Positions 11,261-57,912 are shown, numbered from the stretch's first letter. The stretch: DNA of 64,000 bases from an uncultured Candidatus Saccharibacteria bacterium (GCA_964589975.1 CAZPVH010000001.1:23214-87213); one strand, 5' to 3'. The notes: generated by a model from the letters alone, not told the origin. Translations and numbers: made by a program.

Positions 11261-12253
11261 ATGAGAACCATCTTCACCCTCCTCGCCTTCGTGGCGACGT
11301 TCGGGCTTTGCGCCCAAAGCATTTCAGGCGACTGGAATGAATCTCACTACATCATGGGTACGCAAGGCAAGATCGAATACGACGAGTCCATCACGATCAA
11401 GCAGATCGTGAACGTCGGTAACGACTTGCCGCTCCAGCGGCGCGTCCGTTATCGGCATGGCGCCGGTGACTGGCAGTCGTTTCCTGGAGTTCCGGACACG
11501 GTCATCACCCAGAACTACACGTTCCATCGGGTGCTGAACGGCTTGTCATGGAGTCCCTACGACAACTACACTTGGGACATCGACATCCGGTACGTAAACA
11601 CTGGCGGCCAGGTGATCGAGGCGCTCCACAGCGAATGGAACAATATCGTAACCCGAGACAGTTCCAACGCAAGCATTGTGGCGTTTCCCGGTCCATACTC
11701 GAACGAATTGTATCTCCAATACGCCGTGTCCATACATAAAGACATGGGTCCCGGGATTGATACGGATGTGAACCTGCGGGCCGTTGGCCAATCATCCGGT
11801 ATGGTCTACAACGTCGAAGTCGACGTTCCGGATGCCGGACAGGAGTTCCAGACGGTTACCTTGTCTTTCACGCCTTGGTATACTGAGGACATCTGCGTGG
11901 AGATTTGGGTCGAGAGATCTGATCTCATATTCTACGACTACACCGACATCGTTGTCGGTTACGTAGATGTTTGGGTGCCCTGCACGATGTGGGACGGCAA
12001 CTCGACCGCTACCGGCGAGAAGCCTTCCATGCCTGACCTTCTGCCGTTCCCGAGCCCGACTTACGGATCCATCACGGTCCAAGAGCTTGATACGAACGAA
12101 CAGACGCTCGATGTGTACAGCCTGAACGGACAGTTGGTTGAACGTTTGCAGACCTATGGTTTGACAACAGTGACGCACGACTTCAGTAATCTGGCAGCCG
12201 GTGTTTACACCCTGCGCCAGAACGAACGTGCTGTGCGTTTCCAGAAGCTCTGA
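11261..12253 (+). CDS. secreted protein with a Por/T9SS-type C-terminal sorting domain (high-GC3 gene)
   Basis: Signal peptide ...FGLCA|QSIS. C-terminal ~70 aa (LDVYSLNGQLVERLQ...LAAGVYTLRQ...RFQKL) resembles the TIGR04183 Por secretion tail. GC and GC3 are clearly above neighbouring genes. Confidence 0.6.
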   Translation: MRTIFTLLAFVATFGLCAQSISGDWNESHYIMGTQGKIEYDESITIKQIVNVGNDLPLQRRVRYRHGAGDWQSFPGVPDTVITQNYTFHRVLNGLSWSPYDNYTWDIDIRYVNTGGQVIEALHSEWNNIVTRDSSNASIVAFPGPYSNELYLQYAVSIHKDMGPGIDTDVNLRAVGQSSGMVYNVEVDVPDAGQEFQTVTLSFTPWYTEDICVEIWVERSDLIFYDYTDIVVGYVDVWVPCTMWDGNSTATGEKPSMPDLLPFPSPTYGSITVQELDTNEQTLDVYSLNGQLVERLQTYGLTTVTHDFSNLAAGVYTLRQNERAVRFQKL

Positions 12254-16302: not shown

Positions 16303-16653
16303 ATGCAAAATATAAAAATAATAATTTTGGGAGTGCTAGTTCTGGTGGGAGTTGGATACGCCGCGTTTACAAAATTTCACAACACCGAAAAAGACGCTCC
16401 GAATCCGTATGAGAATTCTGAGATTATAGTAAATACTTTCGAGGAAGATACTGGCTGGGGCTATGACGTCATGATCGATGGCAACCTCTATGTCCATCAG
16501 CCGAACATTCCTGCTCTGGGTGGGAACAAAGGCTTCAAGACCGAAGCGGATGCTCGCGCGACAGGGAATCTCGCCACCCAAAAGATTCGTGACGGCATCA
16601 TTCCGCCGACCCTTACAGTTGAAGAACTGAAGCAAATCGGAGTTGTTCAGTAG
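16303..16653 (+). CDS. small membrane-anchored protein, DUF4907-like
   Basis: N-terminal TM, then GWGYDVMIDGNLYVHQPNIPALGGNKGF...ELK, resembling the Bacteroidetes DUF4907 family. Called from memory, not searched. Confidence 0.55.
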   Translation: MQNIKIIILGVLVLVGVGYAAFTKFHNTEKDAPNPYENSEIIVNTFEEDTGWGYDVMIDGNLYVHQPNIPALGGNKGFKTEADARATGNLATQKIRDGIIPPTLTVEELKQIGVVQ

Positions 16654-24939: not shown

Positions 24940-25506
24940 ATGGATAACAATTACAAAGAAAAATTAAGCGATTTCTATCATGCCAAAAAGCGCATGCCTT
25001 CTTATTCGGAGATGATGAAGCTCTTTGGCTTCAAGTCGAAAAACGCCGTCTTTCGTTTGGTTGAGAAATTTGTGGACGCGGGGATTGTGGCAAAGGATAA
25101 ACTTGGCCGCCTCATTCCGGAAAAGCTCCTTGGCGAGGTGCCGCTTCTCGGCGCGGTCAAAGCTGGCTTCCCGTCTCCTAACGAGGAAGATCTTTCCGAG
25201 ACTATCAGCCTCGACGACTATTTGATTGAAAAGAAAGAGGCGACGTACATGCTCGAAGTCGATGGAGACTCTATGATCGACGCGCATATAGAGAAAGGCG
25301 ATATGGTTATTGCCGAACGTCGAACCACCGCTAAAGATGGTGAGATAGTCATTGCGGAAGTTGATGGAGAATTTACCATGAAATATTTCAGATCAAGCGG
25401 CGGGCGCGTTTGGCTCGAGCCGGCGAACAAGAATTACCCGAACATCTATCCGGAAGGCGACCTCAGGATCTGCGCCGTAGTCAAAGGGGTTATCAGAAAG
25501 TATTAA
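24940..25506 (+). CDS. lexA: LexA repressor (S24 peptidase)
   Basis: N-terminal wHTH; cleavage-site-like VKAG|F; catalytic VDGDSM Ser and Lys (MKYF...). Confidence 0.92.
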   Translation: MDNNYKEKLSDFYHAKKRMPSYSEMMKLFGFKSKNAVFRLVEKFVDAGIVAKDKLGRLIPEKLLGEVPLLGAVKAGFPSPNEEDLSETISLDDYLIEKKEATYMLEVDGDSMIDAHIEKGDMVIAERRTTAKDGEIVIAEVDGEFTMKYFRSSGGRVWLEPANKNYPNIYPEGDLRICAVVKGVIRKY

Positions 25507-25511
25507 ATCTT

Positions 25512-26774
25512 ATGCCGATATCAATAAGAAAATTTCCTCGGGCGATTGTTCATGTCGACGGGGATTCTTTCTTTGTCTCATGTGAGCTCGCGAGTCGGCC
25601 GGATTTAGTTGGCAAACCAGTAGTGACTGGCGAAGAGCGCGGGATTGCGACTGCCATGAGTCCCGAGGCGAAAAGGCTCGGAGTTACTCGCGGCATGCCG
25701 GTTCACCAGATCCGGCGCGAATTCCCATCTGTCGTGATCCTTCCTTCGGATTATGAAAGCTACGCCATGTATTCTCGCCGAATGAAAGATATAGTTCTTC
25801 GCTATACCCCCGAAGTTGAAGAGTACTCGATCGATGAATGCTTTGCCGATATTTCCGGGCTTCGACGGAGTCTTAATATGTCTTATGAAGAGATTGCCGC
25901 CGCGATAAAGATTGACCTTCAAGCGGAGCTCGGCATGACTTTTTCCGTAGGCTTATCAGTCACGAAAGTCTTAGCAAAGGTAGCTTCCAAATGGGACAAA
26001 CCGGACGGTCTAACTTTTATTCCTGGATACAAGATAGAAGAGTTTTTACAAAAACTTCCTGCAAAAGATGTTTGGGGCATCGGGCCTAATACATATTTAT
26101 ATCTTGAGAAGCTTGGGATTAAAACAGCTCTTGATTTAGCAAAGAAAGATTTGGAGTTTGTTAGAACATATTTTACAAAACCCTTAGAGGAAATTTGGCG
26201 AGAGCTTCGCGGTGAACACATACTCCAACTCTCCGTCGGCAAGAAGACTGAATACCGGTCCATCATGAAGACTCGAACATTCACACCGGCGTCATCTGAG
26301 ATATCTGTCATTCTGGCGGAGATATCTCGAAACATTGAATCTGCATGCGCTCGCCTCCGTCTACATGATCTTTATGCCAAAGAAGCAATTTTTTATATCA
26401 AAAGCCAGGATTTTCGTCATCATGGATTAGAAATCAAATTCCCAATCCCGATCGCGACACCAGACAGAATGATTCGCTTGGTTGAAGAAAATTTTCATAA
26501 AGTTTATGAAAAAGGAAAAACATATAGAGCCACGGGAATTATTTTGAAACAAATCACGCCAGGACGAGCGGTAAGTCCGGATCTATTCGGCGAGTTCGTG
26601 AGAGGGGAAGAGGTAAGAAAGATTTATGATGAGATTGATGCGCTTTCCAAAAAATTCGGTCAATCGATCGTGACGCTCGGATCAAGCATGATGGGAAAAA
26701 ACTCCACTACAATCCATCAGAGGAAGCTTGTTAACAGAATATTGCCGCTACCACTTCTCGGGAAGGTCCACTAA
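25512..26774 (+). CDS. dinB: Y-family DNA polymerase IV (DinB)
   Basis: HVDGDSFFVSCE active-site motif. Start set at ATG 25512, immediately after the lexA stop. Confidence 0.9.
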   Translation: MPISIRKFPRAIVHVDGDSFFVSCELASRPDLVGKPVVTGEERGIATAMSPEAKRLGVTRGMPVHQIRREFPSVVILPSDYESYAMYSRRMKDIVLRYTPEVEEYSIDECFADISGLRRSLNMSYEEIAAAIKIDLQAELGMTFSVGLSVTKVLAKVASKWDKPDGLTFIPGYKIEEFLQKLPAKDVWGIGPNTYLYLEKLGIKTALDLAKKDLEFVRTYFTKPLEEIWRELRGEHILQLSVGKKTEYRSIMKTRTFTPASSEISVILAEISRNIESACARLRLHDLYAKEAIFYIKSQDFRHHGLEIKFPIPIATPDRMIRLVEENFHKVYEKGKTYRATGIILKQITPGRAVSPDLFGEFVRGEEVRKIYDEIDALSKKFGQSIVTLGSSMMGKNSTTIHQRKLVNRILPLPLLGKVH

Positions 26775-47445: not shown

Positions 47446-47811
47446 ATGAAAAATACACCAGATTATTATTCGAGGGCGACCCAAAGTGTCTTTATTGTTG
47501 CTGGGATTCTTATGCTAGTAACTTTCCCGTATTTCTTTAAGCAGTTTGAGTTTGGGACATTCGCCATTTTGGCCGTGATCGTATTGGTTGCTATCGGCGC
47601 AGGCTGGGCTACCGGCAGTAACCTGATGACCAGGAAGCTAAATGTTTTAATCGCCATCGCTGGCTGCGCGATAGCCTCATTCAAAGCCGTTAGTCTTTTC
47701 TTTAATGGCGTTGAAGAGCCACTCGCCATATTCTCTTTCTGGGTTCTCCAGCTCCTGTCACTTCTATTTTTCTTTGCAATCTACTTCAGCATAAAGGCGA
47801 GCCGACGATAA
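47446..47811 (+). CDS. membrane protein, 121 aa (4 TM)
   Basis: Hydrophobic ORF immediately upstream of the T4CP-like ATPase. Confidence 0.55.
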   Translation: MKNTPDYYSRATQSVFIVAGILMLVTFPYFFKQFEFGTFAILAVIVLVAIGAGWATGSNLMTRKLNVLIAIAGCAIASFKAVSLFFNGVEEPLAIFSFWVLQLLSLLFFFAIYFSIKASRR

Positions 47812-47828
47812 GGTGCTAGAATATATGC

Positions 47829-49880
47829 ATGGCGGCAGACACGGTAACATACTTCGCTGAAACTGATTTTCGCGGAGAAAAAAGATCATTCGGAATCAAG
47901 AACGAGGACAGATCTCGGCATGTTTATGTTATTGGAAAGACCGGTATGGGTAAGTCGACACTCCTCGAGAACTTGGCCGCCCAGGATATTCAAAACGGCG
48001 AGGGTATGTGCTTCATCGATCCTCACGGCTCGGCAATCGACACACTGCTAGAATATATTCCCGAGGAGCGCATAAAAGATGTCGTCTATTTCGCGCCGTT
48101 TGACTCTGACTTTCCGATTTCATTTAACGTTATGGAAGACGTGGGCGCTGATCAGCGCCACCTAGTTGTGTCGGGGCTCATGTCTGCCTTTAAAAAAATC
48201 TGGGTCGACGCCTGGTCGGCCAGAATGGAACACATTTTGAATAATACAATTCTCGCGCTTTTGGAGTACCCGGGCTCGACCTTGCTTGGCGTGAACCGGA
48301 TGTACGCGGACAAGGGCTTCCGCGAAGAAGTCGTTTCAAAAGTCACCGACCCTGGAGTTAAAAGCTTTTGGAACGAAGAGTTCGCCAAATGGGATGAAAG
48401 ATTCATGCGCGAAGCGACGGCTGCTATTCAAAACAAGATCGGCCAATTTACTTCTAATCCTCTCATTCGAAACATTGTCGGCCAAGGACATTCGAGTTTC
48501 GATATCCGAAAGCTGATGGACGAAAAGAAGATATTCTTAGTGAACCTTTCAAAAGGACGCATCGGCGAACAGAATGCCGGACTTCTTGGCGCCATGATCG
48601 TAACGAAAATCTACTTGGCGGCTATGTCCCGCGCTGACGTTACCAAGTCCGCTATGTCGCAATTACCTCCGTTTTTCCTTTTTGTCGACGAATTCCAAAA
48701 CTTTGCAAACGACTCCTTCTCCGATATTTTGGCGGAGGCGCGAAAGTATAAATTAAATCTAACAATCGCGCACCAATACATTGAACAGATGGAAGAATCT
48801 GTTCGCGATGCTGTATTCGGCAACGTCGGTACAACCATTTCTTTTCGCGTTGGACCACTCGATGCGGAGGTCCTTGAGAAGATTTTCTTGCCGACATTTA
48901 CAGCTGAAGACATTGTCAATCTGGGTAAATACCAGATCTATCTGACGCTGATGATTGATGGAGTTGGGTCAAAGCCGTTCTCGGCAACCAACATGGCGCC
49001 GCTAAAGAAGAAGACAGTCACTTATAGAAATGAGGTTATTGAATTTTCTCGCGCGACGTATGCTCATAACCGCGGTGAGGTTCAAGGCGGAATCGAAGCT
49101 TGGCATGCAAATAATTATGAAACCGGAAAGGATAAAAAGGAACGCGAAAAGAAAGAAGCGTATCTAGCCGAGAAGGCTCAAAAAGAAAAATTACTTTATG
49201 GTGATAATCCGCCTCCTCCCGGGCCAGCCAAGATTCAAATCCCAGATGATATTGTTAAGAAGATTTCTGAAAAGCGCCCTCCGGGATCTACTGAGTACGG
49301 CAGCCGACCGCGCGAAGAAAAGCCGGTCGCTTCACCAAGCCGCGACAATCGACCTTTCCAGAAAGCGCTGACTGAAATTAGGTCTACGCCTCAAAACATA
49401 CCAAAACCTAATGTTTCTCTTGACGGGTCTAGTGGTCGCGTGAGTCAGGGGGGAGGCGCTGTTCAGCAGCACAATAATTTGAATAGGCCACGGGTAGATG
49501 TTCCTCGCCCCGCAAGTAATCAGCCGGCCCAGAATCAGCCATTTAGAAAGCTTGATCCGAAAATCGCTACCGACAAGAATAAAAGCCTTTTGAAGGATGT
49601 ACTTTCGCGCGCGCTTGAAAAGATGCCAGCCGCACAAAAAATCGCGCAAGCGGAAAATACTTCTGAAAATAAATCGACTTCTTCGATTGACATTGTCGCT
49701 CCCATAAATCAGCCAGAAATTACTCCAATCAAAAAAGATGCTCCGGCGCAGCTTAACGCCAATGCTCCTACAAATCTCGATTTTTCAAAACGAGAAGAGG
49801 ACAAGAGAACTGAAGAGTCAGATAAGCCGAAAAAACCTAGAGAAATTCCTGAAGATGTTCTAAAACAAATATTGGAATAA
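47829..49880 (+). CDS. VirD4/TraG/TraD-like type IV coupling-protein-family ATPase (FtsK/HerA superfamily), soluble, with a ~280-aa disordered C-terminal tail
   Basis: Walker A VIGKTGMGKSTL, Walker B FLFVDEFQNF, T4CP-like all-alpha region. No N-terminal TM. C-terminus Pro/Lys/Glu-rich. Confidence 0.7.
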   Translation: MAADTVTYFAETDFRGEKRSFGIKNEDRSRHVYVIGKTGMGKSTLLENLAAQDIQNGEGMCFIDPHGSAIDTLLEYIPEERIKDVVYFAPFDSDFPISFNVMEDVGADQRHLVVSGLMSAFKKIWVDAWSARMEHILNNTILALLEYPGSTLLGVNRMYADKGFREEVVSKVTDPGVKSFWNEEFAKWDERFMREATAAIQNKIGQFTSNPLIRNIVGQGHSSFDIRKLMDEKKIFLVNLSKGRIGEQNAGLLGAMIVTKIYLAAMSRADVTKSAMSQLPPFFLFVDEFQNFANDSFSDILAEARKYKLNLTIAHQYIEQMEESVRDAVFGNVGTTISFRVGPLDAEVLEKIFLPTFTAEDIVNLGKYQIYLTLMIDGVGSKPFSATNMAPLKKKTVTYRNEVIEFSRATYAHNRGEVQGGIEAWHANNYETGKDKKEREKKEAYLAEKAQKEKLLYGDNPPPPGPAKIQIPDDIVKKISEKRPPGSTEYGSRPREEKPVASPSRDNRPFQKALTEIRSTPQNIPKPNVSLDGSSGRVSQGGGAVQQHNNLNRPRVDVPRPASNQPAQNQPFRKLDPKIATDKNKSLLKDVLSRALEKMPAAQKIAQAENTSENKSTSSIDIVAPINQPEITPIKKDAPAQLNANAPTNLDFSKREEDKRTEESDKPKKPREIPEDVLKQILE

Positions 49881-49903
49881 TTATAATTAAATAAAAGTTT
49901 TAT

Positions 49904-51331
49904 ATGTTTGATAGAAACATTATCTTCAAAGCTTTATTAATAGGTGGGTTTTTGGTGTTACCGATAATTACTCGAGCTGAAGTTTTAGTCACAGAGCTTG
50001 CTTGGATGGGTACGACAGTTTCTGCAAATGACGAATGGATTGAGATATATAACAGTGGTGGAGAGTCGGTAAGTCTTACCGGTTGGACACTCACGGCTTC
50101 AGACGGAACTCCAAGCATTACATTGTCTGGCTCAATCGGCGCGGGAGAATACAAACTACTGGAACGTACAGACGATACAACATATCCGGGGATTACGGCC
50201 CATCAGATATTTACTGGAGCACTCGCAAATGAAGGAGAGAATCTCTCGCTCAAAGATAACGGAGCAGTGGTCCAATCAATGCCATTTTCTAGCGGATGGC
50301 CAGCAGGTGATTCGGTCACAAAGAAAACGATGCAATGGACGGGCTCTGCTTGGGTAACCGCTGATGAAACTGCGGGAAGCGCTACAACTGCTACATCAAG
50401 TGAGGAAGAAGAGGAGAATCAAGAAGAAGAGACAGGCGGAGAAGAAGAGGAGAATAATGAAGAGGAAGATGAGGAAGAGGTTGTAACTATAGCAACCGGA
50501 AGTCATACTGCACCAAAGCGAACGGTCTATGATGATATGGTTTTCGAACTTGATTTCCCGACGCGAGCTGTGGCAGGTAGCCCTGTGCGTTTTAGCGCTC
50601 AAGCTCTTGATTTTGATCGCACGAAACTCAGAAAAGGGAAATATATTTTCAACATGGGCGATGGAACTGTCCGAACTTTCAGTAAGGACTGGAACGGTAA
50701 GAGTGTCGGTTTCTTTTATCATGCGTATGATCACCCCGGTACGTATCAGATCTCGATAAAATACTACATGACAGTTTTCGAGGATTTACCGCCAGAAGTA
50801 GAAGATACTTGGACAATCGAAGTTTTGGCGCCGAGTATTTCTATTTCAAGAATCATGAATGATGGTTCAGTCGAGATGAAGAATATGTCGACTGGGGCTG
50901 TAGATATTTCTAAATGGGTTCTTTCTGATAATTCGGGTAGGAAATTCGAAATCCCCGACGGCTCGGTGATATTGGGAGGCAAGACCGTCGTCTTTGATTC
51001 CAGCACGACGCATTTCGTGGCGGGCGGGATTATTAGCCTCTCAACACCAACCGCCGCTCACGTGGCTTCTTCCATGGCGCTAAGGCCGGTTTCTTCTTAC
51101 AAGCCGACCAGCGTAAAATCCAAAACAGAACAGAAGGAAACCACGGGTGAAGTATTGGGAGTTAGTTCAGCTAGCCCTGCCGAAGATACCGCTATTGCAG
51201 AAGTAAAAGAAAAACCCGGCGCTTTAGTCTGGGTTCTTCTCTTTATAATTCTGGTCTTGGCATCCGTCATTGCCGTTCTTCTCTTGAAAAGGGAAGAACA
51301 CAAAGAAGAATATCTTCTAATCGACGAATAA
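49904..51331 (+). CDS. lamin-tail-domain (LTD) surface protein with an acidic E-rich linker and a C-terminal TM anchor
   Basis: Signal peptide; LTD 1 ITELAWMGT..NDEWIEIYNSG..VSLTGWTL; poly-Glu linker; LTD 2 with KWVLSDNSG; C-terminal TM + basic tail. Confidence 0.75.
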   Translation: MFDRNIIFKALLIGGFLVLPIITRAEVLVTELAWMGTTVSANDEWIEIYNSGGESVSLTGWTLTASDGTPSITLSGSIGAGEYKLLERTDDTTYPGITAHQIFTGALANEGENLSLKDNGAVVQSMPFSSGWPAGDSVTKKTMQWTGSAWVTADETAGSATTATSSEEEEENQEEETGGEEEENNEEEDEEEVVTIATGSHTAPKRTVYDDMVFELDFPTRAVAGSPVRFSAQALDFDRTKLRKGKYIFNMGDGTVRTFSKDWNGKSVGFFYHAYDHPGTYQISIKYYMTVFEDLPPEVEDTWTIEVLAPSISISRIMNDGSVEMKNMSTGAVDISKWVLSDNSGRKFEIPDGSVILGGKTVVFDSSTTHFVAGGIISLSTPTAAHVASSMALRPVSSYKPTSVKSKTEQKETTGEVLGVSSASPAEDTAIAEVKEKPGALVWVLLFIILVLASVIAVLLLKREEHKEEYLLIDE

Positions 51332-51332
51332 T

Positions 51333-52583
51333 TTAGTTATTGCTTTTTATGGCAGAAGCTTCGGTCTTTGTGGAATTCGCTTTGGCCAGATCCAGTTCTT
51401 TAAGATGTATATGAGTCTCAATCTCGGAGGCAATGCGGTTTACTTCCTGGGCAAGGGAGAGGGATTCGCGCCACTCTTCTTCGTTGTAAAGTCTAGTAGC
51501 TTCTTTTAGTAGGTCTTCGGCGAGCTTTAGTCTTGATTCAATATTGAATTCCTGGATTACAACTTGGTCTTCTGTGGTAGCGACAGTAGCTTTGTCTAGG
51601 GAAATACTTGATGGAGAGATGCCCACTGGCGCAGACATTTCTGTTTTGATGTTTACAGTATTACTTTCGACTGGCAAATTAATTTCCGCGTCGGTTTCGA
51701 TTTTGGCATCCAAAACGGTCTGACGCTCTTCGATCATACGGATCTTTTCTCGGGCAGAGTCTATACGAGACTTAACCAAGTCCTTTATATCGTCGTTTAT
51801 TTCATTGATAGTTTCTTTGGCATTCTTTTTTATTTCGCTCTGAAGGTCCTCCGCCTTAGCCATCATGGTTGCAACTACGGCGTCAGTTTCAGCCTCGCCT
51901 GATACGTCAGCTATGGTTTCATTCTCCTCGTTTTCAACAGCCTTGATTCCATCCTCAACTTTGGCTATTAGATTCTCAGCGCCGTTATTTTCACCTTCGT
52001 CACCAGATTTTTCCAAGATTTCTTTGTGAGCTTCCATGACAGGGGCTAGCTTTGCTGTTGTCTCAAGCACTAGTTCGACTTCGCCGTCCTCGCGCAACGC
52101 CGCGATGCCTTCTTCAAGCTCTTCAATGTGCTCTTCGATTTGGGCAATAACGATTTTCTGATTATCTGCAGAAAGCTTGTTTGTCTTGGCAAGTGTCTGC
52201 GCTTCCTCAAGACGTCGCTCGACTTTCTTTGACTGGACGGCAACTTTAGCTTCCGGAGATCGGGCGAACCCTTCTTCAATAGCTTCGTTTACATTAACCT
52301 TTATGCTGTAAAGAGTTTCGCCGGGAAGAGAATTTTGCGCGGCATAAGAAACACCGGACCCTCCAGCAACAACGGCGATTATAAGAAGGAAGGCCGCCGC
52401 TTTCACGAAAGAGCGGACTTCGAATATTGAAATATAATTTTTCTCTCTAAGCGCTGGCATCTTGCCGCGGATCGGATTATAAGCAATGAATTCAAGAATT
52501 TTTGCACGCAAAGTATTCTTCTCGTTTTCCGAGAGTCGTTCTAGTTTGGCGCGCTTTATGAAATTTTTTATTTCTTTATTCAT
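51333..52583 (-). CDS. membrane-anchored anti-sigma factor-like protein (DUF5667-like coiled-coil ectodomain)
   Basis: Immediately downstream (4-nt gap) of the ECF sigma; N-terminal cytoplasmic segment, one TM, long helical acidic C-terminal domain. Confidence 0.5.
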   Translation of the reverse strand: MNKEIKNFIKRAKLERLSENEKNTLRAKILEFIAYNPIRGKMPALREKNYISIFEVRSFVKAAAFLLIIAVVAGGSGVSYAAQNSLPGETLYSIKVNVNEAIEEGFARSPEAKVAVQSKKVERRLEEAQTLAKTNKLSADNQKIVIAQIEEHIEELEEGIAALREDGEVELVLETTAKLAPVMEAHKEILEKSGDEGENNGAENLIAKVEDGIKAVENEENETIADVSGEAETDAVVATMMAKAEDLQSEIKKNAKETINEINDDIKDLVKSRIDSAREKIRMIEERQTVLDAKIETDAEINLPVESNTVNIKTEMSAPVGISPSSISLDKATVATTEDQVVIQEFNIESRLKLAEDLLKEATRLYNEEEWRESLSLAQEVNRIASEIETHIHLKELDLAKANSTKTEASAIKSNN

Positions 52584-52587
52584 TTTA

Positions 52588-53103
52588 TTAGTAGTATTCT
52601 CGCATTACTTTCTTCAATTTGTCGATCGACCGGTGAATCTTTACGGATACGTTATTCGGGGTCATTCCTGTGGCTTCGCTGATTTCCTTGATCGAGAGCT
52701 CGTTGACGTACCTCATGGTGAGCATCTCTCGGGCCTCTTCGTCTAGCTCATCTAATTTTCCGATCACGAATTTCTTGTCGAACTCAAGCTCTGTCACCTC
52801 TATCTCATCTTCTCCACTAAACTCTACTCCGGTTTCAGTGATGGCGTCCAAGGAGTAGGTCTTTTTCTTCCGCCGGTAATCGATTATGAGGTTTTTGGCG
52901 ACTTTGTATAAAAAGGCTTTGATGTTGTCTATGTCCTTGCCGTCTGACAAATATCCCCATGTTTTCATGAAAGTGTCTTGAACCATATCGACTGCAACCT
53001 CTCGGTTCGAAGTCTGGAAATGGCAATAGCGAAGAATTGCATCCGAATGGTCTTCGTAGCTCTTCATGAAAATATCCTTAATTTCTATATGATCTTTCGC
53101 CAT
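52588..53103 (-). CDS. ECF-type sigma-70 family RNA polymerase sigma factor
   Basis: Region 2 (DMVQDTFMKTWGY) and region 4 HTH (LSIKEISEATGMTPNNVSVKIHR). Confidence 0.85.
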   Translation of the reverse strand: MAKDHIEIKDIFMKSYEDHSDAILRYCHFQTSNREVAVDMVQDTFMKTWGYLSDGKDIDNIKAFLYKVAKNLIIDYRRKKKTYSLDAITETGVEFSGEDEIEVTELEFDKKFVIGKLDELDEEAREMLTMRYVNELSIKEISEATGMTPNNVSVKIHRSIDKLKKVMREYY

Positions 53104-53156
53104 ATATGACGTTTCGGGGCCCTAATTATTACAAATTAGATACTAACATATTAACG

Positions 53157-53183: not shown

Positions 53184-53358
53184 AGCAATACGTATCGCTA
53201 TTTTTTGAACCTCCATCCTTCCAGGCGGTAATCCTTGCAGAAATAGCAAAGTGTCCAGAATGCCGGGGTGATTACCAAGATTTCCATGTTTTCAGGGGTT
53301 TTTGTTTCGGTTCGGCTTTTATGACGACACAAATTTGCCAATCTTACAATCCTTAATT

Positions 53359-53959: not shown

Positions 53960-54241
53960 ATGGGTCACGTTAGAGATAATAAATTTTATTATGTTTACGT
54001 GCTCAGGAGTTTGAAAGATGTTAAGTGGTATATCGGATATACGAGTAACCTACGGGAACGCTTCGTCGAACATGGTAAAAATATCCGAGGTTGGACGAAA
54101 GGAAAAGGGCCATTTGAAATTATTTATTATGAAGCATCTATCGACGACGAGGATGCACGGTCGAGGGAATTATATATAAAAACTGGGATGGGGCGCAGAT
54201 ATCTAAACAATAGATTAAAGCGCTTTCTATCTCTAACGTGA
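53960..54241 (+). CDS. GIY-YIG nuclease-family small protein
   Basis: FYYVYVLRSLKDVKWYIGYTSNLRERFVEH. TAATAT -10 lies 7 nt upstream (leaderless-like). Confidence 0.75.
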   Translation: MGHVRDNKFYYVYVLRSLKDVKWYIGYTSNLRERFVEHGKNIRGWTKGKGPFEIIYYEASIDDEDARSRELYIKTGMGRRYLNNRLKRFLSLT

Positions 54242-55973: not shown

Positions 55974-55984
55974 ATATTTAATTG

Positions 55985-56015
55985 AAAAGCCCCCGACACG
56001 TGTCGGGGGCTTTGG
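55985..56015. terminator. bidirectional terminator (gcccccgacacgtgtcgggggc)
   Basis: Perfect hairpin. Confidence 0.7.
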
Positions 56016-56026
56016 CTTACAGCTTG

Positions 56027-56419
56027 TCATATGGTCGACTCGTTATCTGCGTCAGCAGGTCTGGCAATCAGCTTCTTGCCGGGTGTGATCGAAGTCGAGT
56101 AACCCTGCTCGGACTTGTACATCTGGATGGGGTCGTCTACAACGAAGAGGCTGATCTCGGTACCGACCGGAAGAGGATCTCCTTCGAAGAAGATCGGACC
56201 AACCTTGTCCATGAAGTCGTCGTAGTAATAGGCTTGGCTGGGCCAGCCACCGATCGCCATATAGAAGTTCGTATCGAGCGGATTCTTCTTCAGCGTGTAT
56301 GTTTTTTCGCTGAAGTAAGGCTTCATGGTCGAAGTTTTGGACTCCATGACCGAAACGGACTCATGACTTCCGCAGCTTGCGAGGAGTGCTATGCATGCAG
56401 TGAAAAGGACTGTTCTCAT
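56027..56419 (-). CDS. lipoprotein (lipobox LLASC), high-GC3 gene
   Basis: Signal peptide with L-A-S-C lipobox; GC-rich codon usage. Confidence 0.6.
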   Translation of the reverse strand: MRTVLFTACIALLASCGSHESVSVMESKTSTMKPYFSEKTYTLKKNPLDTNFYMAIGGWPSQAYYYDDFMDKVGPIFFEGDPLPVGTEISLFVVDDPIQMYKSEQGYSTSITPGKKLIARPADADNESTI

Positions 56420-56470
56420 GTGTGTTTGTTTTGCCCTCTATTTTGCATATCAAAACTCATTTGTCAAAGA

Positions 56471-56500
56471 AAAGACCCCCAGCCATGCCGGGGGTCTTCT
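56471..56500 (-). terminator. terminator (gacccccggcatggctgggggtc)
   Basis: Hairpin; followed on the minus strand by TTGACA. Confidence 0.6.
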
Positions 56501-56512
56501 AAAGTTCTGTGG

Positions 56513-57052
56513 CTACTTCTCCCGCTCAACGAGCTGGATGGTGTATGTGTCCTTGTCATGCATCGGATCATAGAGGAATCTGTGCCCCTCGAGTCCCGTC
56601 ATGTTCGTCATGAGACGCGTTCGGTTCATCGCCGGCGACTTTGTCCCGTCTTTGTCCGAGATGAAGGCCATGTCGCACATCGAGCAGTAATGGAACGTTG
56701 AGTCTGGCGCAATGGCGAAGCCGAGCGTATCCGAAGTCTGGGCATCCGGATCCTTGAAGTAGAGGTCGTAATCATAAACGCCTTTGCTCACGAATTTCGG
56801 TCGCGCGAAGATCTGGCAGCGGAAAGGGAAGCAGGCGTAGAGCGTGTCCCCAGTTTGCGGATCGCGGAGTCCGAAGAAGTTCGGATGTCCGGCGCTCTGC
56901 TTTTTCAGCCTAAGTTCCTTCCAGCCGTTCGTGGTGTCTGCGCCGAGCGTCTGGGGCTTCGGCAGGTCCGGGTTGGTTTGAGCGTTTGCCACAAGAGGGA
57001 AAAGAGAGGCGAGCCCAACGACGAGAGCGATTTCTGCTAACAGGTTTTTCAT
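56513..57052 (-). CDS. secreted protein, 179 aa, high-GC3 gene
   Basis: Signal peptide ...LVANA|QTNP; 4 Cys; GC-rich. Confidence 0.6.
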   Translation of the reverse strand: MKNLLAEIALVVGLASLFPLVANAQTNPDLPKPQTLGADTTNGWKELRLKKQSAGHPNFFGLRDPQTGDTLYACFPFRCQIFARPKFVSKGVYDYDLYFKDPDAQTSDTLGFAIAPDSTFHYCSMCDMAFISDKDGTKSPAMNRTRLMTNMTGLEGHRFLYDPMHDKDTYTIQLVEREK

Positions 57053-57070
57053 GTGAACTGGTTTACTCTG

Positions 57071-57098
57071 ATTATACGTATGAAAGTCTTTTTGTCAA
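57071..57098 (-). promoter_or_regulatory. consensus sigma70 promoter TTGACA-N16-TATAAT
   Basis: Minus strand: tTTGACAaaaagactttcatacgTATAAT. Confidence 0.6.
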
Positions 57099-57099
57099 A

Positions 57100-57127
57100 T
57101 ATAAAAGGCCCCCGCGAAGCGGGGGCC
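57100..57127 (-). terminator. terminator (ggcccccgcgaagcgggggcc)
   Basis: Perfect hairpin. Confidence 0.65.
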
Positions 57128-57323
57128 CATAGTACTTGAGTAGAACTTATTGATCACCCAACCTGAGACCGATCATTGCGAGAACATATATTGCGATGTT
57201 CCGCAGATTCTTCAGGCCATACTTCCTGACTCGTTTCCAATCCCAATCAAGTATCGGGACCGGCTGCCAGACTTGCCTCCTTCTCACGGCCATATCCGAC
57301 GAGTGTTTGGTGTTCTGGTCAGA

Positions 57324-57731
57324 TCAGAGTTCGTCCGGCTTCTTCGACTTCATGCGGACGTTGTCTTGGCCGCTTTGATCTTCGAAGATGAGGCTCTCGT
57401 CTCCGTAGGGGAGCGCTTGGCAGTCGCGCGCTTCGCGTTCCGCCTCTTCGCATACCTCGGGCGAATCGCTCCATGTGTCGAGCTCCTTGTCGCCATCGGT
57501 GTCGACGGCATAGGTGAATGCGGGGCGTTCTTCGACGACTCCATTCTCAAAGCGGATGGTGTCGATCCAATGCACGTATTCCTGACCGGTCTGGTTGAAG
57601 AGATAGGTCGGAGCGCATGCCGTCTGATGACGGTGCTCGATGGTGATGTCGCCTTGGGCTTTGCTGCTCAAGAGCGCTGCGGCCAGGGCGGTAACGCACA
57701 GGGCGCGAAGCATGATGCTGTTGGTTTTCAT
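57324..57731 (-). CDS. secreted protein, 135 aa, high-GC3 gene
   Basis: Signal peptide ...LLSSKA|QGDI; acidic; 4 Cys. Confidence 0.6.
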   Translation of the reverse strand: MKTNSIMLRALCVTALAAALLSSKAQGDITIEHRHQTACAPTYLFNQTGQEYVHWIDTIRFENGVVEERPAFTYAVDTDGDKELDTWSDSPEVCEEAEREARDCQALPYGDESLIFEDQSGQDNVRMKSKKPDEL

Positions 57732-57752
57732 TGTCCTAATGGTTTTGCTCGT

Positions 57753-57780
57753 ATTATAGCATATATACGTTATTTGTCAA
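57753..57780 (-). promoter_or_regulatory. consensus sigma70 promoter TTGACA-N16-TATAAT
   Basis: Minus strand: cTTGACAaataacgtatatatgcTATAAT. Confidence 0.6.
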
Positions 57781-57912
57781 GGATAAGAATGGTTGAAAAT
57801 TCCTTTATCCGCAAACCTATTTTTTGTTGGTTCTATGAACATGCGCCATCGGCGCGATCAAAAATAGGTGTGCGGGCTTTGAGAAAAAGCCTATTTTTGG
57901 TAAAATCCTGCC

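Follow-up and report, generated by a model that had tools for sequence, protein, structure and literature searches.

A soluble VirD4/TrwB-class ATPase conserved on Patescibacteria chromosomes and recurrently paired with an LTD surface protein

Introduction

What is the role of an ATPase resembling type IV coupling proteins (T4CPs) that is encoded among housekeeping genes? The question is raised by a 64,000-nucleotide stretch of DNA (hereafter the window) from an uncultured Candidatus Saccharibacteria bacterium (GCA_964589975.1 CAZPVH010000001.1:23214-87213). Positions 47446-53103 of this window encode a protein with four transmembrane segments (4-TM), a 683-aa ATPase, an LTD surface protein, and an anti-sigma factor with its extracytoplasmic function (ECF) sigma factor. 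A preliminary reading of the DNA, made from the sequence alone (the sequence-only reading), had suggested that the ATPase may serve DNA uptake or export together with surface LTD proteins. Here we present evidence that the ATPase is a T4CP by descent and a core gene of its lineage, and we tentatively propose that it acts in trans to a type IV secretion system (T4SS)-like apparatus encoded elsewhere.

Much of bacterial diversity belongs to the Patescibacteria, which rely on hosts to supply building blocks and whose transport of macromolecules across the envelope is largely unexplained. Wang et al. 2023 described an essential T4SS cluster in Southlakia that has no recognizable coupling and relaxase proteins (PMC10633639). 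Quinonero-Coronel et al. 2025 reported 5,713 VirD4-type homologs from 2,918 of 3,035 (96%) Patescibacteria genomes, only 148 of them near virB4 (PMC12102498). An essential T4SS-like machine is thus found without a linked coupling protein, yet nearly every genome has orphan T4CP homologs. The window provides one such orphan that is soluble and highly conserved, ends in a putative docking peptide and is recurrently paired with an LTD gene.

Results

Sequence profiles place the ATPase in the VirD4/TrwB class

The five open reading frames (ORFs) of the locus were verified in the window. Those parts that belong to the ATPase are as follows.

47829-49880, plus strand: ORF of the ATPase, 683 aa
47829-49118, plus strand: ATPase core (residues 1-430), a T4CP-type nucleotide-binding domain with an all-helical insertion (~107-231)
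47934-47960, plus strand: Walker A, within the core
48672-48698, plus strand: Walker B, within the core
49119-49841, plus strand: low-complexity tail of ~240 aa, K/P/E-rich and mostly disordered, delimited by composition, AlphaFold confidence (pLDDT) and tail alignments
49842-49877, plus strand: C-terminal peptide EIPEDVLKQILE (residues 672-683), delimited by homolog alignments

The ATPase narrowly passed the gathering cut-offs of four Pfam families (score/cut-off), namely the T4CP families TraG-D_C (28.3/22), TrwB_AAD_bind (26.6/20.5) and T4SS-DNA_transf (26.5/20.1), and DUF87 (27.4/23.2). Its scores were far under the cut-offs of the NCBIfam models for conjugative TraD (50.8/366) and CD1115 (39.1/250). 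The Walker A (GKTGMGKST, residues 36-44) and Walker B (FFLFVDEFQ, residues 282-290) motifs include K42, D287 and E288, which are invariant in an alignment of 43 homologs. The only PDB sequence matches under E = 0.01 were TrwB chains, followed by DotL at 0.023, and a profile of 43 family sequences had TrwB as its sole match in the PDB (E 6.6e-5). T4CP families covered the whole core in the profile matches and VirB4 models covered the P-loop alone, which assigns the ATPase to the T4CPs rather than to VirB4. The VirB4 hallmarks, a ~400-aa N-terminal domain and a match to the VirB4/CagE model, were not found in the protein, and neither were the N-terminal barrel of HerA and the alpha/beta/gamma motor of FtsK. 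No transmembrane (TM) segment was predicted (maximum of 1.29 in a 19-residue Kyte-Doolittle window), and the N-terminus lies only ~25 residues ahead of the P-loop.

An AlphaFold model built from the 43-sequence alignment had pLDDT values mostly of 80-97 over residues 1-460. The predicted fold has a RecA-like core with eight helices (107-231) inserted between strands 85-88 and 235-239. In a Foldseek comparison, the model aligned with the whole of TrwB-deltaN70 over ~420 columns, with TM-scores of 0.60-0.64, and DotL, Cag-beta and HerA scored lower. The profile matches thus put the 683-aa ATPase into the VirD4/TrwB class of P-loop proteins, within the HerA-FtsK superfamily.

Long relatives point to loss of an N-terminal module

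An exhaustive search for relatives of the ATPase returned 22,407 clusters (50% identity) at E <= 1e-3 and 6,091 at E <= 1e-30. In about a third of the best 150 clusters, an N-terminal TM segment and a ~350-aa domain precede the ATPase; the domain is named PF26449 DUF8128 in precomputed annotation only. A profile of DUF8128 found no relative in the PDB and no family in our local Pfam copy, and our literature search found no paper mentioning the domain. A 913-aa protein encoded on a Bacillus subtilis plasmid (NZ_OX419568.1, locus L092) was 30% identical to the window core over its ATPase half (E 7e-36), and its N-terminal domain is common to the long Patescibacteria forms (E 1e-22). This protein has an acidic tail and no predicted TM segment. 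Its gene is followed (L092, 5948-15223) by a gene annotated as replication-relaxation family and by TcpC, TcpE and AAA_10 (VirB4-like) genes, which together are a conjugation module. Another relative (L090) adjoins an integrase and a Replic_Relax gene. Since the long relatives carry the TM segment and DUF8128, and the Bacillus relative lies within a conjugation module, the window ATPase, judging from these homologies, descends from T4CPs and has lost the N-terminal module of TM segment and DUF8128. By the same comparisons, it appears to share its lineage with DUF8128-bearing T4CP-like proteins of monoderm conjugation modules.

Two other ideas were rejected. A split anchor, with DUF8128 encoded separately, was not supported, as a hidden Markov model (HMM) of the domain found nothing in the six-frame translation of the window nor in 86 related loci. 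Equating the Bacillus relative with the T4CP of pLS20 was wrong, as the latter is gene 48, a protein of 786 aa with 2 TM segments, and the plasmid belongs to another family.

Several observations were made on these relatives. PLSDB types NZ_OX419568.1 as non-mobilizable despite its conjugation-like module. In two other Patescibacteria lineages, paired long paralogs composed of a TM segment, DUF8128 and a T4CP-like ATPase lie a few kb apart (L087/L088, 8001-10826 and 18701 onwards; L089, 5558-8116 and 10001-13237); they adjoin secDF, DUF1290 and a Sigma70_r4/HARE-HTH gene, and one stands beside a weak T4SS_pilin match. The closest match in any plasmid record was a 395-aa homolog comprising the ATPase core only (41% identity to the window protein), which lies alone among transposase and recombinase genes on an alphaproteobacterial plasmid of Sulfitobacter mediterraneus (L091, NZ_CP081110.1, 8992-10179).

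The ATPase is a conserved chromosomal core gene

Searches with the ATPase returned more than 8000 clusters at 90% identity, with core identity of 69% or more in each of the top 120, and a relative was present in at least 587 species-level genomes. The relatives came from metagenome-assembled genomes of Paceibacterota, Parcubacteria and "Patescibacteria group". Two loci, L004 and L007, keep the whole neighborhood, and in both of them the ATPase core was the best-conserved gene, as shown by the following identities to the window proteins.

ATPase core: L004 73%, L007 90%
S1 protein: L004 69%, L007 89%
YchF: L004 67%, L007 86%
UDG: L004 62%, L007 80%
HisRS: L004 44%, L007 79%
Def: L004 38%, L007 65%
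Pth: L004 35%, L007 72%
LTD protein: L004 36%, L007 49%

Over the eleven loci that were compared, identity was 65-90% for the ATPase core and 24-49% for the LTD protein. Conservation above that of housekeeping neighbors is not the behavior of cargo of mobile elements or defense islands. In this Patescibacteria lineage (Paceibacteria/Parcubacteria-type), the gene belongs to the chromosomal core, is inherited vertically and has been domesticated; it is no remnant of a mobile element.

A disordered tail ends in a conserved peptide

The ATPase tail (residues 431-683, ~250 aa) is rich in K (12.3%), P (11.9%) and E (8.7%). Two helices lie within it, one E/K-rich (433-457) and the other, NKSLLKDVLSRAL (582-597), semi-conserved, and pLDDT was below 50 at residues 482-575 and 598-669. 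The tails of homologs differ in both sequence and length. The terminal consensus E(V/I)PEDVL(R/K)xILE was present in 115 of 119 close homologs, and remoter short forms end in a looser (I/V)(T/S)PxxLxxxL or in a different motif, PGQxIxF. Such a layout, in which a flexible tether joins the motor to a terminal peptide, suggests that a partner recruits the protein. Acidic tails mediate binding of T4CPs to partners, for example of TraD to TraM, and a motor with a long flexible linker and a terminal peptide resembles an inverted FtsK layout. No FtsZ gene was present in the fetched related loci for comparison of its C-terminal peptide. Glu/Asp-rich C-terminal domains are known among T4CPs (PMC7434980).

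The sequence-only reading had described a soluble, stand-alone ATPase with T4CP-type Walker motifs, no TM anchor and a disordered tail of 280 aa. All of this agrees with our results except the tail length, which is ~250 aa, and the HMM classification that it had called for came out on the side of the T4CPs.

An LTD-PKD-LTD surface protein is a recurrent neighbor

The LTD gene lies directly 3' of the ATPase gene.

49904-51331, plus strand: LTD surface protein, 475 aa, a type-I membrane protein from its Pfam LTD and PKD matches and topology
51287-51328, plus strand: cytoplasmic tail of the LTD protein, KREEHKEEYLLIDE (residues 462-475), from topology

The sequence-only reading had noted two LTD domains and a poly-Glu linker, to which we add a PKD domain, a signal peptide and a C-terminal TM segment. 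The order is signal peptide, LTD, poly-Glu linker, PKD, LTD, TM segment (~441-463) and a 12-aa cytoplasmic tail; Pfam scores were 80.5 bits for LTD (PF00932; cut-off 34.3), in two stretches, and 23.4 for PKD.

We surveyed 84 related loci, taking 8 kb on either side of the ATPase gene. An LTD gene was directly 3' of the ATPase gene in 30 of them, which span all sampled ATPase sub-clusters and differ in their wider contexts. In an independent protein search, at least 20 LTD orthologs shared contigs with ATPase homologs, including the consecutive locus tags QG580_382/383. In the other 54 loci (64%), where no LTD gene adjoins it, the ATPase is conserved to the same degree. The ATPase-LTD pairing is therefore real and recurrent and not universal, so the synteny proposed earlier stands for about a third of the loci and fails as evidence of a core partner: LTD cannot define the core function of the ATPase, which is just as conserved without it.

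The closest LTD orthologs, about 45 proteins (P0274-P0316; 35-100% identity), keep the C-terminal TM segment and the acidic cytoplasmic tail. The tail ends in (E/D)(Y/F)xL(I/L/V)(D/E)-COOH (here EEYLLIDE) or in the variant AEYDLDDILRGS, and is better conserved than the ectodomain, which drifts to 35% identity while the tail motif persists. We also observed that the variant AEYDLDDILRGS resembles the ...PEDVLRxILE ending of the ATPase itself. Remoter LTD proteins, some of them adjoining the ATPase, have short basic tails and no tail motif.

In other proteins, domains with 44-55% identity to the first LTD occur in fusions with ComEA-type helix-hairpin-helix (HhH) modules, a PLD nuclease, an OB fold or dockerins, and the LTD protein weakly matches the N-terminus of the ExeM nuclease. 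Such fusions make a link to nucleic acid, as suggested earlier, plausible, and they are compatible with a protein that binds nucleic acid or a surface outside the cell. An association of LTD proteins with coupling ATPases had been said to be reported for ultra-small bacteria; our literature search found no paper linking LTD proteins with T4CPs, coupling ATPases or DNA uptake in ultra-small bacteria or Patescibacteria.

The sigma/anti-sigma pair appears to be a separate unit

The remaining features of the locus are listed below.

47446-47811, plus strand: ORF of the 4-TM protein, 121 aa, with TM segments near residues 13, 34, 67 and 94
51333-52583, minus strand: anti-sigma-like protein, 416 aa, single-pass, DUF5667-type, convergent with the LTD gene
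52588-53103, minus strand: ECF sigma factor, 171 aa, with Sigma70_r2 and r4_2 and a TIGR02937 match
53108-53133, minus strand, with a second copy at 53323-53348: ECF-type promoter motif TGTAAT-N16-CGTC, upstream of the sigma gene

The sigma factor scored 84.6 bits against TIGR02937 (cut-off 42.9), matched Pfam Sigma70_r2 and r4_2, and contains regions 2 and 4 only. Its anti-sigma partner had earlier been called DUF5667-like. In the window the protein scored under the Pfam cut-off for this family (22.8/27), and the assignment was borne out by its orthologs in L004/L005, which carry DUF5667 in precomputed annotation. In each of the nine loci whose sigma homolog was confident, the motif TGTAA[GT]-N15-17-CGTC precedes the sigma gene. 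Because the proximal copy ends 4 nt ahead of the sigma ATG, the sigma mRNA is probably leaderless. The motif was absent upstream of the 4-TM, ATPase and LTD genes, and no gene follows the only other match in the window, at 16617. We therefore rejected the idea that the ECF sigma factor controls the ATPase/LTD operon.

The pair adjoins the ATPase locus in the nearest clades only (about 10 of the 84 loci), and the motif precedes the sigma gene and is missing before the ATPase operon. These results suggest that the pair is an autoregulated neighbor, and its control of the ATPase operon could not be demonstrated. In L033, the pair lies upstream of the ATPase gene on the same strand, and read-through into the ATPase gene is conceivable there.

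The locus lies in a housekeeping chromosomal setting

The gaps between the 4-TM and ATPase genes (17 nt) and between the ATPase and LTD genes (23 nt) are short, so the three plus-strand genes are likely co-transcribed. The 4-TM protein had no Pfam or NCBIfam match, and only the closest loci (L001, L002, L004/5 and L007) have a homolog of it ahead of the ATPase gene. A small multi-TM gene as a family-wide trait was therefore rejected; a clade-specific membrane partner of the ATPase is possible.

Family scans identified the ~50 other ORFs in the window as housekeeping genes, including SecA, DnaE, RNase HII, glutamate dehydrogenase, BacA, pyruvate kinase, an ABC transporter, UmuDC, Ddl, Fmt, Def, HisRS, LepB, Pth, S1 protein, UDG, YchF, GyrA and UvrC. 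The closest relatives keep the order fmt-def-hisS-lepB-pth-S1-(small TM)-ATPase-LTD-antisigma-sigma-UDG-ychF-gyrA. G+C was 0.43-0.46 in the locus, inside the window range of 0.42-0.52.

The recurrent neighbor families in the 84 loci are envelope or housekeeping genes, as listed below, and no second T4CP-like ATPase was found within the 8-kb flanks. A DUF4015 gene upstream or an LTD gene downstream was present in 66 of the 84 loci.

DUF4015 protein with an N-terminal TM segment: within four genes upstream in 46 of 84 loci, at -1 or -2 in 40
GT4 glycosyltransferase genes: downstream in 44 of 84 loci
LTD-PKD-LTD ortholog: at +1, same strand, in 30 of 84 loci
Anti-sigma/sigma pair: adjacent in about 10 of 84 loci

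In most Paceibacteria-type loci among L006-L086, the ATPase gene has a DUF4015 putative glycoside hydrolase gene (297.7 bits in L052) on one side and consecutive GT4 genes on the other, with a Mur ligase and an RsmI-like methylase further upstream. These surroundings are an envelope or polysaccharide neighborhood.

Other observations concern the wider window. Between ychF and a metallo-beta-lactamase-fold gene, a stretch of ~1.9 kb (55974-57912) has a raised G+C of 0.515 and contains three minus-strand ORFs with lipoprotein- or signal-peptide-like N-termini, one of which (56513-57052) was scanned and had no Pfam match. In L004 the two flanking genes are only ~120 nt apart, so the stretch looks like a lineage-specific insertion. 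A 330-aa protein (11261-12253) has a Por_Secre_tail domain, a Bacteroidota-type signal for C-terminal sorting in type IX secretion, in an otherwise Patescibacteria-looking chromosome; a related locus, L042, is labeled Crocinitomicaceae, and its contig is probably mis-binned. In this reduced genome, a umuD-like (Peptidase_S24) gene overlaps a umuC-like (IMS) translesion polymerase gene (24940-26774). A stand-alone 93-aa GIY-YIG nuclease-domain protein (53960-54241; 51.9 bits) is encoded between UDG and ychF.

Discussion

Proposed role of the ATPase

The role that we favor, with a probability of roughly 0.4, is that the ATPase works in trans to a relaxase-less chromosomal T4SS-like apparatus. 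The protein would assemble into an ATP-driven, hexameric ring. In place of an anchor of its own, short peptides would mediate contacts with partner proteins that draw it to the membrane on the cytoplasmic side. Candidate contacts are the conserved C-terminal peptide on its ~250-aa flexible tether, the upstream 4-TM protein in the window's clade and, possibly, the acidic cytoplasmic tail of the LTD-PKD-LTD protein. At the membrane, the ATPase would supply the missing coupling or motor ATPase of T4SS-like machinery, handling nucleic acid or protein, and probably nucleic acid. The LTD protein would be a lineage-specific surface accessory, possibly one that binds nucleic acid, and the ECF sigma/anti-sigma pair would be a separate, self-regulated unit. 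Ring assembly, membrane recruitment, partner and substrate are all features that we infer.

Several results weigh against this proposal. Among the ~50 scanned ORFs of the window there were no T4SS, relaxase or competence genes, in keeping with the sequence-only reading, and no T4SS or relaxase gene was recognized within 8 kb of the ATPase in the 84 related loci. The tail motifs of the ATPase showed no significant association with LTD adjacency. The VirB4 C-terminal domain has an insertion comparable to the all-alpha domain of T4CPs, and on fold comparison alone T4CPs, the VirB4 C-terminal domain and DptH were inseparable; the model thus assigns the ATPase to the VirB4/VirD4/DptH branch without choosing within it. 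The PADLOC defense model mad8 matched the ATPase at 60.7 bits, above every T4CP Pfam model, a match that we discount as shared ancestry of the ATPase fold because the conservation of the ATPase is unlike that of cargo of mobile elements or defense islands. VirB4 is reported from 2,417 genomes and T4CP homologs from 2,918, and the Southlakia T4CP homolog, whose orthology to the window ATPase is not established, is non-essential and the T4SS essential, according to Quinonero-Coronel et al. (PMC12102498).

Alternative explanations

An exapted ATPase could instead perform a housekeeping task, either FtsK-like chromosome segregation or resolution at division, or envelope and surface-polysaccharide biogenesis. 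We consider this less likely than action in trans, though a live rival. It would accommodate conservation above that of an aminoacyl-tRNA synthetase and translation-related neighbors and the commonest neighborhood (Mur ligase, RsmI-like methylase, DUF4015, ATPase and then GT4 glycosyltransferases), but none of the genes linked to the ATPase is a known partner in division or segregation. The neighborhood also differs between classes, with SecDF and DUF1290 in long-form lineages, so the synteny may reflect inheritance rather than function. The findings of Quinonero-Coronel et al. speak on both sides, as T4CP homologs occur in more genomes (96%) than VirB4 and the authors hold exaptation of orphan T4CP homologs possible, whereas the Southlakia homolog is reported to be non-essential (PMC12102498). 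Somewhat less probable still is a self-contained, T4SS-independent module for DNA uptake or export, in which LTD would bind extracellular nucleic acid and its tail would recruit the ATPase. The recurrence of the adjacent, probably co-transcribed pair (23-nt gap) in all ATPase sub-clusters, the contigs shared elsewhere, the cytoplasmic motif kept in ~45 closest orthologs, and the domain fusions and weak ExeM match of the LTD protein are what one would expect of such a module. However, in 54 of the 84 loci an equally conserved ATPase has no adjacent LTD gene, several adjacent LTD proteins in remoter loci have no tail motif, and ATPase tail motifs are uncorrelated with LTD adjacency; moreover, the pair is encoded without a channel protein, the 4-TM gene being clade-specific, and we found no support in the literature.

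That the ATPase is a part of anti-phage defense (DptH/MADS-type) or the remnant of an integrated conjugative element is very improbable. No methyltransferase, nuclease, integrase, relaxase or other defense or mobile-element gene was found in the window scans bearing on this explanation, the G+C of the locus is inside the window range, housekeeping synteny is common to the relatives, and the conservation of the ATPase is far above expectation for defense or mobile-element cargo; these points outweigh the mad8 match and the occurrence of relatives in mobile elements (L090, with integrase and Replic_Relax, and Bacillus plasmids). A more speculative idea, which we regard as a long shot, is that a domesticated ATPase that no longer needs a T4SS docks, via short acidic C-terminal peptides, on single-pass surface receptors, of which the LTD-PKD-LTD protein would be one, at their cytoplasmic tails. 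There it would power or gate uptake of nucleic acid from the host, with its own, similar C-terminal peptide as tether or autoinhibitor.

The soluble form, the high conservation, the terminal peptide and the pairing with an LTD protein whose cytoplasmic tail is conserved offer concrete, testable interaction hypotheses.

Comparison with known systems

The best PDB sequence match of the window ATPase, TrwB of R388, represents the VirD4 type, with which it shares the Walker A and B motifs and the all-helical insertion in the nucleotide-binding domain, at only 14-16% identity to TrwB. Unlike TrwB and VirD4, the window protein has no N-terminal TM domain and lies in no conjugative element, with no relaxase or mating-pair genes nearby. 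The DUF8128 long forms are closer: their ATPase cores share 30-55% identity with that of the window protein, and the tail behind the core varies and is often acidic. They carry, however, the N-terminal (TM and) ~350-aa domain that the window ATPase does not have. DptH/DndH (in its C-terminal ATPase) and mad8 of MADS differ from the window ATPase, which has no defense partners or island context and shows core-gene conservation.

T4CPs without a TM domain that pair with small membrane proteins are a recognized class, to which TraJ/TraI of pIP501 belongs (PMC7434980). The soluble ATPase of the window, with its acidic C-terminal extension and its position after a small multi-TM gene, resembles this class in these respects. 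T4CPs of the TraJ/TraI class lie within conjugation operons, whereas the 4-TM gene of the window is kept only in the closest relatives.

The closest parallel in setting is the published class of orphan Patescibacteria T4CP homologs, to which the window ATPase belongs. In the excerpted text of Quinonero-Coronel et al., these proteins have the same T4CP HMM matches and are chromosomal, away from virB4 and without a relaxase (PMC12102498). That text counts homologs, and to it the locus adds previously undescribed details: an architecture truncated of TM segment and DUF8128, a disordered tail with a terminal motif, the level of conservation, and a recurrent LTD partner with a tail motif of its own.

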